A stretch of DNA of 64,000 bases. Origin: Escherichia coli. Its GTDB lineage: Bacteria; Pseudomonadota; Gammaproteobacteria; Enterobacterales; Enterobacteriaceae. A model generated the notes under the pieces. It did no database searches and had not been told where the DNA came from. It was given only the letters and a program-made list of their open reading frames with translations. Of the stretch, positions 2,720-54,470 are shown one piece after another (the first letter of the stretch is position 1; the number at the start of each line of letters is the position of its first letter). The stretch lies in assembly GCF_002854065.1 (NCBI RefSeq), contig NZ_CP024147.1; one strand, given 5' to 3'. Made by a program: the position numbers and the translations under genes.

Positions 2720-2774
2720 GGTGATGCTGCCAACTTACTGATTTAGTGTATGATGGTGTTTTTGAGGTGCTCCA

Positions 2775-3050
2775 GTGGCTTCTGTTTCTATCAGCTGTCC
2801 CTCCTGTTCAGCTACTGACGGGGTGGTGCGTAACGGCAAAAGCACTGCCGGACATCAGCGCTATCTCTGCTCTCACTGCCGTAAAACATGGCAACTGCAG
2901 TTCACTTACACCGCTTCTCAACCCGGTACGCACCAGAAAATCATTGATATGGCCATGAATGGCGTTGGATGCCGGGCAACCGCCCGCATTATGGGCGTTG
3001 GCCTCAACACGATTTTCCGCCATTTAAAAAACTCAGGCCGCAGTCGGTAA
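2775..3050 (+). CDS. insA: IS1 InsA (transposition inhibitor / N-terminal part of the transposase)
   Basis: 91-aa ORF beginning [30 protein letters not shown], recognised as IS1 InsA. Confidence 0.95.
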
Positions 3051-3472
3051 CCTCGCGCATACAGCCGGGCAGTGACGTCATCGTCTGCGCGGAAATGGAC
3101 GAACAGTGGGGATACGTCGGGGCTAAATCGCGCCAGCGCTGGCTGTTTTACGCGTATGACAGGCTCCGGAAGACGGTTGTTGCGCACGTATTCGGTGAAC
3201 GCACTATGGCGACGCTGGGGCGTCTTATGAGCCTGCTGTCACCCTTTGACGTGGTGATATGGATGACGGATGGCTGGCCGCTGTATGAATCCCGCCTGAA
3301 GGGAAAGCTGCACGTAATCAGCAAGCGATATACGCAGCGAATTGAGCGGCATAACCTGAATCTGAGGCAGCACCTGGCACGGCTGGGACGGAAGTCGCTG
3401 TCGTTCTCAAAATCGGTGGAGCTGCATGACAAAGTCATCGGGCATTATCTGAACATAAAACACTATCAATAA
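2969..3472 (+). CDS. insB: IS1 InsB reading frame (expressed as an InsAB' fusion by -1 frameshift)
   Basis: 167-aa ORF in the -1 frame relative to insA, recognised as IS1 InsB. Confidence 0.9.
3026..3032 (+). promoter_or_regulatory. IS1 A6C slippery site for programmed -1 ribosomal frameshifting
   Basis: AAAAAAC heptamer within the insA/insB overlap. Confidence 0.7.
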
Positions 3473-3487
3473 GTTGGAGTCATTACC

Positions 3488-3496
3488 CATAAGTGC
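3488..3496. repeat. IS1 target-site duplication, right copy (CATAAGTGC)
   Basis: The same 9-mer occurs immediately outside both IS1 ends. Confidence 0.9.
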
Positions 3497-4268
3497 TATT
3501 GTCAGTAATTCGTGGATGCCTATTACTACAAATTAGAGTATTGCGAATCGTATGCAATGGCATGCAAATGACGGAACGGCTGATCACTGGCATTTGGGTG
3601 ATCACCAGATCGGCTTTGCGGTGAACCAACAGTTCTTCAGCATTCTCTGCTGACATGAGGATATCATGGCACTCAATCTCGACAGAGGAATCTTGTCGTA
3701 GGCAGCGGATCAGCATACTATTATTAGAGCAAGAAATGAGCTGAGGGCCGTGAATAATAAAGTTTTTCTTTAGTTCGGACTTATTGACTATATTAATTGT
3801 TTGTTCAAGGCCTCTGAGATTTTTCTCAAGATGGTGATGCAGATTTAACCCTGTTGTCGTCGGCGCGATACCTTTTCCTGAGCGAATGAATAAAGGGTCA
3901 TTAAATTGCGCACGTAAGCGTTGTAACGACTGGCTCACGGCTGATGGGGTGATATATAGTGATTCAGCAGCTTTGCTAATGCTTAAATGCTGGTAAATAC
4001 ACTCAAATATGACAAGAAGATTTAAGTCGAACTTTTTCAAGTCGTAGAGATTGGTCATACACTACTCCGGTTATATTTTTCTTCCATGATATATTCACTT
4101 AATCAATGTTTTTTTTGCGTATATATTTTTATTGGTTATGTTTTTTTGCTTAACTCAGGATTAAGTTTTTCTAAAATAGCACAGCCACTTAGGGCAGAGC
4201 GAGCAATTCATGCTTTTTTAGGATGGTTGAAAAGCAGGGATATAGTTCAACCATCCATGAATTACCTT

Positions 4269-22880: not shown

Positions 22881-23441
22881 ATGAACGTGAGTAAATATGT
22901 CGCTATCTTTTCCTTTGTTTTTATTCAGTTAATCAGCGTTGGTAAAGCTTTTGCTAACGCAGATGAGTGGATGACAACGTTTAGAGAAAATATTGCACAA
23001 ACCTGGCAACAGCCTGAACATTATGATTTATATATTCCTGCCATCACCTGGCATGCACGTTTCGCTTACGACAAAGAAAAAACCGATCGCTATAACGAGC
23101 GACCGTGGGGTGGCGGTTTTGGCCTGTCGCGTTGGGATGAAAAAGGAAACTGGCATGGCCTGTATGCCATGGCATTTAAGGACTCGTGGAACAAATGGGA
23201 ACCGATTGCCGGATACGGATGGGAAAGTACCTGGCGACCGCTGGCGGATGAAAATTTTCATTTAGGTCTGGGATTCACCGCTGGCGTAACGGCACGTGAT
23301 AACTGGAATTACATCCCTCTCCCGGTTCTACTGCCATTGGCCTCCGTGGGTTATGGTCCAGTGACTTTTCAGATGACCTATATTCCGGGTACCTACAACA
23401 ATGGCAATGTGTACTTTGCCTGGATGCGCTTTCAGTTTTGA
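22881..23441 (+). CDS. pagP: Lipid A palmitoyltransferase (outer-membrane beta-barrel)
   Basis: ORF 22857..23441; start set at [14 protein letters not shown] for 186 aa. Confidence 0.93.
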
Positions 23442-23615
23442 GACAAATGAAGTTTTAGTAAATTCTTTAAAATCAATGAGTAAAATAATTAACATCAAAA
23501 ATAACGCGACTTTTATCACTTTTTAGTAAAGTTGCACTGGACAAAGCGTACCACAATTGGTGTACTGGTAACCGACACAGCATTTGTGTCTATTTTTCAT
23601 GTAAAGGTAATTTTG

Positions 23616-23825
23616 ATGTCTAAGATTAAAGGTAACGTTAAGTGGTTTAATGAGTCCAAAGGATTCGGTTTCATTACTCCGGAAGACGGCAGCAAAGACG
23701 TGTTCGTACACTTCTCTGCAATCCAGACTAATGGTTTTAAAACTCTTGCTGAAGGTCAGCGCGTAGAGTTCGAAATCACTAACGGTGCCAAAGGCCCTTC
23801 TGCTGCAAACGTAATCGCTCTGTAA
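23616..23825 (+). CDS. cspE: Cold-shock-domain protein CspE
   Basis: 69-aa protein [22 protein letters not shown] with RNP motifs; ATG at 23616 inside the longer track ORF. Confidence 0.95.
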
Positions 23826-23845
23826 GATACGTCAGCAAGAATTCA

Positions 23846-23874
23846 AAACCCGCTTAATCAGCGGGTTTTTTTTG
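23846..23874 (+). terminator. Rho-independent terminator downstream of cspE
   Basis: Hairpin AACCCGC-TTAATCA-GCGGGTT followed by T8. Confidence 0.75.
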
Positions 23875-23878
23875 GTCT

Positions 23879-24262
23879 TTAGTGTGCGGTTGAGGCCGAA
23901 AACAGCCAGAAAGCCAGTGCGGTCATGGCAAAAGACCCCAGAAGGTTGACGAAAACGTTCAGTAACGCCCAGCCAAAGCGGCCCTCTTGTAACAAAAACA
24001 CCACTTCTGCCGAAAATGTTGAGAAGGTTGTTAGACCGCCACAAAATCCGGTGGTGATTAATACTTTCCACACGGGATCAATGTTCGTCATCCTGCTGAA
24101 CCAGGCGAATCCCATTCCTATGATGAATGCCCCAATCAGGTTTGCTGCCAGCGTCCCCAACGGAATCGCCTGATGCAGCGGGTTAAATCGCATACTTAAC
24201 AGCCATCTCGCCACGCTTCCTGTACCACCGCCAATAAAAACTGCTAAAAGAAGTTGTAACAC
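23879..24262 (-). CDS. crcB: Fluoride ion channel (Fluc/CrcB)
   Basis: 127-aa four-TM ORF. Confidence 0.93.
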
Positions 24263-24354
24263 TGCAAAATCCTGCTATTTGATTTGTATGAGTGATAAGT
24301 GTAACGCCGAATAATCGTCGTTGGCGAATTTTACGACTCTGACAGGAGGTGGCA

Positions 24355-25143
24355 ATGCTGGTTGCTGCAGGACAGTTTGCTGTTACATCTGTGTGGGAAA
24401 AGAACGCTGAGATTTGTGCCTCGTTGATGGCGCAGGCGGCGGAAAACGACGTATCGCTGTTTGTCCTGCCGGAAGCATTGCTGGCACGCGATGATCATGA
24501 TGCAGATCTATCGGTTAAATCAGCACAGCTGCTGGAAGGCGAATTCCTCGGACGTTTACGGCGAGAAAGTAAACGTAACATGATGACGACAATTCTGACG
24601 ATTCATGTTCCTTCAACGCCGGGGCGCGCATGGAATATGCTGGTGGCACTTCAGGCAGGAAACATCGTCGCCCGTTATGCCAAACTGCATCTCTATGATG
24701 CATTTGCCATTCAGGAATCACGCCGTGTTGATGCTGGTAATGAAATCGCTCCGTTACTGGAGGTGGAAGGGATGAAGGTCGGTCTGATGACCTGTTATGA
24801 CTTACGCTTTCCAGAGCTGGCGCTGGCACAGGCATTACAGGGAGCTGAAATCCTGGTACTTCCTGCCGCCTGGGTTCGCGGGCCGCTCAAAGAGCATCAC
24901 TGGTCAACGTTGCTTGCCGCTCGTGCGCTGGATACCACCTGTTATATGGTGGCGGCGGGGGAGTGCGGGAACAAAAATATCGGGCAAAGCCGGATTATAG
25001 ATCCCTTTGGCGTCACCATTGCGGCAGCGTCAGAAATGCCTGCACTCATTATGGCGGAAGTGACGCCCGAACGTGTGCGTCAGGTGCGCGCGCAACTGCC
25101 CGTCTTAAACAACCGTCGCTTTGCGCCGCCGCAATTATTATGA
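24355..25143 (+). CDS. ybeM: Carbon-nitrogen hydrolase (nitrilase-superfamily) protein, intact in this sequence
   Basis: Uninterrupted ORF; start chosen at the ATG at 24355 with AGGAGG 5 nt upstream (the track ORF begins at a GTG at 24349). Confidence 0.85.
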
Positions 25144-25271
25144 TGTTTTTTTACTCGGCGCTTGATTCACCTTGTTACAGATTGCTATTGTGTGCGCGCG
25201 TCGAATGACCGTTAATATTCTCTGGTTTTTAAGGCGCGTTCTGTTGCCGGTTATATGTCAAGAAGGTATCT

Positions 25272-25475
25272 ATGGGTGAGATTAGTATTACCAAACTGCT
25301 GGTAGTTGCGGCGCTGGTCGTTCTGCTGTTTGGGACTAAGAAGTTACGTACGCTGGGCGGAGACCTTGGAGCGGCCATTAAAGGGTTCAAGAAGGCGATG
25401 AATGATGACGATGCTGCGGCGAAAAAAGGCGCAGACGTTGATCTTCAGGCTGAAAAGCTCTCTCATAAAGAGTGA
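25272..25475 (+). CDS. tatE: Twin-arginine translocase subunit TatE
   Basis: 67-aa TatA/E-family ORF ([26 protein letters not shown]). Confidence 0.95.
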
Positions 25476-25516
25476 CGTGGCGAGCAGGACGCTCCCTCAA
25501 TATCTTGTTCGATACA

Positions 25517-25546
25517 AAAAACCCGCTTCAAAAAGCGGGTTTTTTA
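25517..25546. terminator. Bidirectional rho-independent terminator between tatE and lipA
   Basis: Hairpin CCCGCTT-CAAA-AAGCGGG flanked by an A6 run on one side and a T6 run on the other. Confidence 0.7.
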
Positions 25547-25575
25547 TCAGACAGATGTAAGTAATTATTACAGGA

Positions 25576-26541
25576 TTACTTAACTTCCATCCCTTTCGCC
25601 TGCAAATCGGCGTGGTAAGAAGAGCGGACAAACGGACCGCATGCAGCATGGGTAAAGCCCATCGCCAGCGCTTCGGCTTTCATTTCGTCGAACTCATCCG
25701 GGCTAACGTAACGTTGAACCGGCAGGTGATGGCGGCTTGGCTGCAAATATTGCCCCAGCGTTAACATCGTCACACCATGACGGCGCAGGTCGCGCATTAC
25801 CTCAATAATTTCTTCATTGGTTTCACCCAGTCCCACCATCAGACCAGACTTGGTCGGGATTTCCGGATGTGCTTCTTTAAAGCGTTCCAGCAGCTTCAGC
25901 GACCAGTTGTAATCTGCACCAGGCCGTACCTGACGGTAAATACGCGGTACGTTTTCCAGGTTATGGTTGAACACATCTGGTGGCGTTGCAGTCAGAATAT
26001 CCAGAGCACGATCCATACGACCGCGGAAATCCGGCACCAGAGTTTCAATTTTGATTTGCGGGCTTTTTTCCCGAATGGCAGTAATGCAATCCGCAAAGTG
26101 CTGGGCACCGCCATCGCGCAGGTCATCACGGTCAACGGAGGTGATAACCACATAACGCAGCGCCATATCGGCAATGGTCTGCGCCAGTTTCACTGGCTCA
26201 TTGGCATCAGGAGCTACCGGCCGACCGTGGGCAACGTCACAGAACGGACAACGGCGGGTACAAATAGCGCCGAGGATCATAAACGTTGCTGTGCCGTGGT
26301 TGAAGCATTCCGCCAGGTTAGGGCAGGAGGCTTCCTCGCAGACAGAATGCAGGCCATTTTTGCGCATTGCGGCTTTGATGCCCTGGATACGTGTAGAGTC
26401 CGCTGGAAGCTTGATTTTCATCCATTCCGGCTTGCGCAGCAGGGCTTCGCGCTCTGTTGCCACGTTTTTAACCGGGATAAGGGCCATCTTATCGGCATCG
26501 CGGTATTTAACACCGCGTTCCATCACAATGGGTTTACTCAT
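25576..26541 (-). CDS. lipA: Lipoyl synthase (radical SAM)
   Basis: 321-aa ORF with cysteine motifs for two Fe-S clusters. Confidence 0.96.
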
Positions 26542-26749: not shown

Positions 26750-27702
26750 TCAAAATGCATTACGGATAACATCTATTACTCCGTGCAGGATGGGATCACG
26801 CAGGCTGAATTTGTTGTAGTGGATAGAGAAATCTATTTGCTCCTCATTTAAGGACGGAAAAGGCAGTTTTTCCAGCGGCCAGCAACGGCTAAACAGGTTA
26901 TAAAAACGGCTGGGAATAATCGCTAACATGTCACTGTTGGCAACCAGTGCAGCGATTGTCAAAATGTTGTAGCTGGTGAAGCTGATCTGCCGGTCCGGAA
27001 ACATCTCTTGAATTCTCTGCCGCAGACCGCTGAAATTTTGTCCTTCCGGTAACAGGAGTACATGTGCAGCGTTGTCGATAGTCTCTCTGTCATCTTCTAA
27101 AGAGAGTAGTGGATTTCCCTCGCGGCAAATTAACACCATATTGTCGGTGAACAGAACATGATGTTGCACCGTACGATTGGTGCAAAACATGTTATCGATG
27201 ATGAGATCGGTTTGAAACTGACTGAGTTGGTTTTCCGCGTCGCTGATGGGAGGGTTGCGCAGTAAAAGCTGCGGATAGTGAGTTTTAATCGCCCGATAAA
27301 TGACAGGAAGGACCAGGGCTCCGACCGAGGGGGTGGTCGCGATAGTTATCGTTCGTTGCTTATCATAGCTTCCTTCGATATCCAGCGCGCCAAGAATGGA
27401 TTCAAGGCCCTGACTGATATACTCATGTAGATGCATCGCAAATGCGGTAGGAGTGACACCCTGGCCTTTGCGAATAAACAATGGGTCAGGGATATAACGC
27501 GCAGTTTCTGTATAGACTGACTGATTGCCGAGGGGGTCAGATTAAGCACTTTCGCTGCATTAACGATCCCTTTATGTACATATACAGCTTCAAAAATAGT
27601 CAGAAGGTTAAGATCAATATTTCGTAAGGTTGTAAATATTTGTGGTTTACCTTCTGACGACTTTCTGCTTAAACAGGGTTCGATTTGATTATTACTATCC
27701 AC
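26750..27702 (-). pseudogene. ybeF: LysR-family transcriptional regulator split by an apparent 1-bp frameshift
   Basis: N-terminal HTH ORF (27346..27702) and C-terminal substrate-binding-domain ORF (26750..27481) are adjacent in different frames and together reconstitute one LysR-type protein; the frame changes near 27489-27496. Confidence 0.7.
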
Positions 27703-54074: not shown

Positions 54075-54470
54075 ATCCAACTCCTTTATCTTCTGCGTTA
54101 AGAACGCATGGATACCCGTTGTGAGTGTTTGTGTTGTTATCGTCTGCAACTTTATTGTGCAGTGTTGTGACTGTTAGGTAACATTTAGTTTGGGTAAATG
54201 TAAAGATATTGATGTTTTATTGTTTGTTTTTGCGAGGTGCACCGCACCATTCCGAAGCAAAATTCTTAAAATGCACTCTTTTGGTGCTACCGGTGGATTG
54301 CTGTGGTGCAACCGGGTTGTACTGATGCTGGTTAAAGCTTTGCCTGGTATAACAAAGCAATAGATGTGCCAAAGTTGGATAGGAGAATATTGTTATCCGG
54401 ATAATGCACTGATGCCGCATCCGGTGAGCGTGCCGAAATATGGGATGTATTCCGGCACGATAAGAAGGGA

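Follow-up and report, generated by a model that had tools for sequence, protein, structure and literature searches.

The segment at 24355-25143 (+) of the 64,000-nucleotide stretch of Escherichia coli DNA analysed here (the window, from contig NZ_CP024147.1) is very probably the intact, ancestral allele of ybeM, encoding a 262-residue cytoplasmic amidase of the Nit1 type, and the pseudogene of K-12 is a derived form with a one-base deletion that belongs to a minority clade. That the gene is intact in the window had been predicted from the sequence alone. The observation is correct, and the allele it describes is a common one, already known, of a gene that has been named.

Direct reading together with the list of open reading frames gives a frame of 789 bp, with an ATG start, 262 sense codons in total and a TGA stop. 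The Shine-Dalgarno sequence AGGAGG can be read at 24344-24349 (+), with a spacer of five nucleotides (TGGCA) to the ATG, so that the uninterrupted frame and the ribosome-binding site are both confirmed. The start in the open reading frame list is a GTG at 24349, six nucleotides before the ATG and overlapping the Shine-Dalgarno sequence. RefSeq uses the ATG in identical DNA, giving a CDS of 789 bp (CUWW06, ET350, and BL21(DE3)), and in ET350 and CUWW06 the identical DNA is the annotated CDS for WP_000959109.1. The feature at 24355-25143 (+) is thus assigned as the CDS of a deaminated glutathione amidase (a CN hydrolase of the Nit1 type) from the reading frame, the PF00795 and NF033621 matches and the identical annotated CDS.

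The encoded protein is identical over its whole length to RefSeq WP_000959109.1, found also in BL21(DE3) (ECD_RS03005) and in an O157-type strain. The exact sequence occurs on at least 1,000 contigs, and its UniRef representative, YBEM_ECO57, is named 'Deaminated glutathione amidase'. The position next to crcB and tatE is also shared, leaving no difference between the gene in the window and E. coli YbeM as annotated. The order crcB, ybeM, tatE, lipA is identical in K-12, BL21, E. fergusonii, and Salmonella, as is expected of an orthologous position in Enterobacteriaceae. Residues 3-245 align with positions 2-255 of the 256 in the Pfam CN_hydrolase profile (PF00795; 140.4 bits, gathering score 23.2, E = 8e-41). 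The NCBIfam model for deaminated glutathione amidases (NF033621, de_GSH_amidase) is matched from position 2 to 260 of 260 with 452 bits, above its curated cut-off of 355. The Yersinia-type model for the same activity (NF043013) gives a partial match of 82.5 bits with a cut-off of 500, which places YbeM outside that group. The original description as a nitrilase-superfamily amidase can accordingly be narrowed, since the protein is annotated as a deaminated glutathione amidase of the Nit1 type, a name that the profile scores favor.

The catalytic residues of the superfamily are in place. The triad consists of Glu40 (GAA, 24472-24474, +), Lys110 (AAA, 24682-24684, +) and Cys147, the nucleophile (TGT, 24793-24795, +), which align with E54, K127, and C169, respectively, of Caenorhabditis elegans NitFhit (1ems). 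The position of Cys147 is also that of the cysteine in yeast Nit2 (4h5u), which is a serine in the C169S mutant structure (4hgd). Glu121 (GAA, 24715-24717, +), within an invariant Q-E-S motif and matched by a conserved glutamate in 1ems and yeast Nit2, is a probable second active-site glutamate, a role suggested by what is known of the nitrilase superfamily. The three triad residues and Glu121 are invariant across 14-15 enterobacterial orthologues (from E. fergusonii, Citrobacter, Salmonella, Leclercia, Kosakonia, Enterobacter, and others), which are 72-84% identical and all 262 residues long. The Glu-Lys-Cys triad whose presence the original prediction had proposed as a check is therefore found.

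The AlphaFold2 model of YbeM (pLDDT 79, pTM 0.83), a prediction and not a solved structure, has two low-confidence loops near the active site, at residues 113-126 and 174-181. When it was compared with the PDB by Foldseek, all 50 of the matches listed belonged to the nitrilase superfamily (TM 0.70-0.81), so that the predicted structure has the alpha-beta-beta-alpha sandwich fold by which the superfamily is defined. The top matches among those listed are the yeast Nit2 structures (TM ~0.78, E ~2e-19), and by sequence the closest solved relatives are NitFhit (1ems, E = 3e-29) and yeast Nit2 (4h5u, E = 1e-26). With yeast Nit2 (4h5u, 4hgd) and the Nit domain of the mammalian Nit1/NitFhit group (1ems), the predicted YbeM fold superposes at a TM of ~0.78-0.81 with the triad aligned. 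However, identity to these proteins is only 26-28%, and YbeM is shorter (262 versus ~300 residues). It carries neither a Fhit fusion nor an N-terminal extension.

YbeM shares its superfamily and its triad with the omega-amidases, and good matches in sequence and fold include mouse Nit2 (2w1v, E = 3e-22) as well as yeast Nit3 (1f89). Nit1-type enzymes also keep a weak omega-amidase activity, a fact that counts in the same direction. YbeM could then be an omega-amidase of the Nit2/YafV type, acting on 2-oxoglutaramate or 2-oxosuccinamate, or some other small amide or nitrile hydrolase. This is quite improbable. E. coli YafV shares the superfamily and the catalytic chemistry, but YbeM falls outside the YafV-type model (NF007757; 58.4 bits, well under the curated cut-off of 249), whereas it exceeds that of NF033621 (452 versus 355). 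Moreover, the nearest folds among the matches listed are those of yeast Nit2, which is the Nit1 orthologue, and not those of yeast Nit3 or mouse Nit2.

For a deaminated glutathione amidase, the substrate and chemistry of YbeM would be those of the characterized members of the family. In the probable mechanism, transaminases now and then act on glutathione at its gamma-glutamyl amino group and yield deaminated glutathione (2-oxoglutaryl-Cys-Gly). Cys147 would attack the amide carbonyl of this compound, with Glu40 as the likely general base and with Lys110, together with Glu121, stabilizing the tetrahedral intermediate or oxyanion. Departure of Cys-Gly would leave a thioester acyl-enzyme, and hydrolysis of the thioester by water would free 2-oxoglutarate. 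The E. coli enzyme itself was reportedly assayed by Peracchi and colleagues in 2017, in keeping with its database names. Among the characterized members, mammalian Nit1 and yeast NIT2 are described as deaminated glutathione amidases (PMC5714238, citing Peracchi et al., 2017).

The state of the gene in K-12 is different. MG1655 lists ybeM (b4581, earlier divided into ybeH and ybeM) as a 788-bp pseudogene, as the original prediction had it, and K-12 work routinely takes it as a pseudogene and a neutral insertion site (PMC7242477; PMC6207328). At this shared locus, pairwise alignment with the window gives 5 substitutions and 1 gap (99.3% DNA identity), so the K-12 gene is neither intact nor identical to the gene in the window. 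The gap falls in codon 67 (CGT, Arg; 24553-24555, +), whose second base, the G at 24554, is absent from MG1655, J53, and NDM3, shifting the frame. Translation of the K-12 gene gives 66 correct residues and 9 out-of-frame residues before a stop, 75 in all, and Lys110, Glu121, and Cys147 are therefore lost. J53, a K-12 derivative, and NDM3, a urine isolate, carry the same deletion, annotated as 'frameshifted'. With the G restored, K-12 YbeM would still differ from the window protein by V33A and V37A, the latter at a residue that is invariant in the family. NDM3 has the deletion without either substitution when its allele (L008, 356-1143) is compared with that of MG1655 (L002, 5032-5819). The frameshift is thus the older event, and V33A and V37A were added later in the K-12 line, which fits a relaxation of selection once the frame was broken.

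How common each allele is can be judged from complete genomes. The ybeM DNA is found in 5,424 of 5,426 complete E. coli genomes. With a 70-mer that has the K-12 deletion at its center, 860 of these 5,424 (~16%) give a match of at least 99%, and all such matches in an evenly spaced sample of the ranking were exact. The corresponding 71-mer of the intact allele, taken from the window, matches at the same threshold in 3,552 of the 5,424. Genomes with neither match carry other SNPs, and the matches sampled among them are 71 bases long, exceeding the K-12 query by one. Apart from these counts, one genome, UTME-9, was disregarded in comparing ybeM loci because all genes around its ybeM are annotated as frameshifted, which points to a low-quality assembly. 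The intact gene is thus the ordinary condition, ancestral and in the majority, from which the K-12 frameshift allele derives. The earlier suggestion that this strain retains a functional amidase holds in that an intact Nit1-type member of the family with its triad appears to be encoded, with the qualification that nothing rare has been retained.

The deleted G lies outside any repeat (GGAC[G]TTTA), and a single origin is therefore the simplest reading: the K-12 frameshift probably arose once. The sampled exact carriers of the K-12 allele extend beyond laboratory strains to human, faecal, river-water, and farm isolates. One might go further and regard the frameshift as a stable natural polymorphism and not a laboratory accident of K-12, loss of the gene being tolerated or even favored in the clade. 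We hold this extended reading to be unlikely, and nothing in it is specific to the window, whose allele is an ordinary one.

Besides the intact ybeM, the original prediction had pointed to decay of two neighboring regulators, ybdO and ybeF, and both lesions are real. Over 48.9 kb the closest complete genome, CUWW06, differs from the window by 8 mismatches and a single gap (99.98% identity), and the window has in addition a 768-bp insertion at 2720-3487. The insertion is an IS1, 99% identical to IS1A of BL21 and flanked by a 9-bp target duplication (CATAAGTGC). It splits citR (ybdO), the gene of a repressor adjoining the citrate-lyase region, into fragments at 2379-2719 and 3488-4058 (-). IS1 is present at other sites in citR in some complete E. 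coli genomes; a contiguous match across the IS1/citR junction of the window was found in none of the 5,426. The LysR-type regulator gene ybeF (26750-27702, -) lacks one T, between + strand positions 27492 and 27493, which accounts for the one gap to CUWW06, and this allele too was found in none of the 5,426 complete genomes. Both the citR junction and the ybeF deletion recur in a draft assembly (GCA_035821435.1, contig JAPQBK010000029.1; 100% identical over 8,687 bp), which may be the strain of the window itself or a very close relative and so gives no independent confirmation of the ybeF lesion. As a check for sequencing error in ybeF, exact look-ups were made of its 118- and 243-residue fragments, which had no match, and of the 228-residue fragment with an ATG start, which did, the latter ORF being called on 23 contigs.

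Lesions of ybeF are also seen elsewhere. The gene is inactivated in at least four ways within ~80 bp in separate lineages, all of which leave the same 228-residue C-terminal ORF. Those outside the window (at ~3715-4030) are a CAG to TAG change (L017) and a run of five C shortened to four (L018) or lengthened to six (L019). Recurrent loss of ybeF is suggested by these sequences, and the two homopolymer lesions could be assembly errors. Overall, the window is ~98.5% identical to MG1655 634338-698873, and the IS5D copy present in MG1655 between gltI and lnt (687851-689045 there) is missing from the corresponding site of the window, at ~54174-54178. A Shigella origin, an idea raised by the IS1 and the pseudogenes, is unnecessary given one IS in 64 kb, 99.98% identity to E. 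coli CUWW06 and full identity over 8.7 kb to GCA_035821435.1.

The mosaic of decay had been offered as a means of placing the lineage of the strain. Two rare lesions serve that end and are the lineage-informative markers of the window, namely the IS1 that splits citR and the single-base loss in ybeF, but the intact ybeM adds almost nothing. Being the majority and ancestral state, it excludes a K-12-like clade only and is therefore a poor marker.

An open frame could still be without functional meaning, the gene being silent or already decaying in this strain. The two decayed genes just described would fit such a state, as would the fact that ~16% of E. coli genomes manage without ybeM. The upstream region is also in keeping with silence: the spacer between crcB and ybeM is only 92 bp, and a consensus scan found no convincing sigma-70-like promoter on its + strand. 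When the region was scanned for promoters and terminators, neither rose above the level of shuffled sequence. A ybeM promoter would accordingly lie within the crcB leader or beyond it.

Selection and expression speak against silence. The Nei-Gojobori dN/dS of the window ybeM is 0.05-0.07 versus alleles of the phylogroup B2 type (ATCC 25922, BEN2908), 0.06 versus E. fergusonii and 0.11 versus Salmonella. Ratios as low as these, both within E. coli and across genera, indicate that ybeM is kept by strong purifying selection; taken with the Pfam and NCBIfam matches, they argue that the frame is no chance ORF. The DNA is, moreover, identical to alleles of many unrelated strains. In the CFT073 strain, ybeM is reported to be a ChIP target of NsrR with a transcript that falls (0.30-fold) under NO stress (PMC5320621), and the gene is therefore transcribed there. 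Silence or decay of ybeM in the strain of the window is thus extremely unlikely, and the gene is best regarded as an intact and selected one. In UTI89, over-expression of short out-of-frame fragments of ybeM causes filamentation, and that of the full ORF does not (PMC6206680).

Little space separates the divergent genes crcB and ybeM. In their spacer the strongest sigma-70-like match, by consensus only, is on the other strand and directed towards crcB (24328-24355, -; TTGCCA, 16 nucleotides, TAAAAT; 10 of 12 positions), its -35 hexamer overlapping the ATG of ybeM and the bases between that codon and the Shine-Dalgarno sequence. A fluoride riboswitch in the spacer was considered as a constraint on the 5' end of ybeM and discarded, there being no Rfam match to it at the gathering score. 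The sole Rfam match in 23400-25700 is a cspA-type thermoregulator over cspE (RF01766; 23431-23873, +), covering leader and coding sequence with 127.6 bits (gathering score 78).

The significance of finding ybeM intact in the window is small in itself. It lies mostly in what it says of K-12, which serves poorly as the reference for ybeM. In most E. coli, ybeM encodes a protein that looks to be working, and annotation pipelines that copy K-12 would wrongly label an intact ybeM as a pseudogene. Should the frameshift prove to be a stable polymorphism after all, E. coli would supply naturally occurring knock-outs of a metabolite-repair enzyme alongside wild-type clades, and ybeM, reported as NsrR-bound and NO-responsive (PMC5320621), could connect nitrosative stress with the repair of damaged glutathione.
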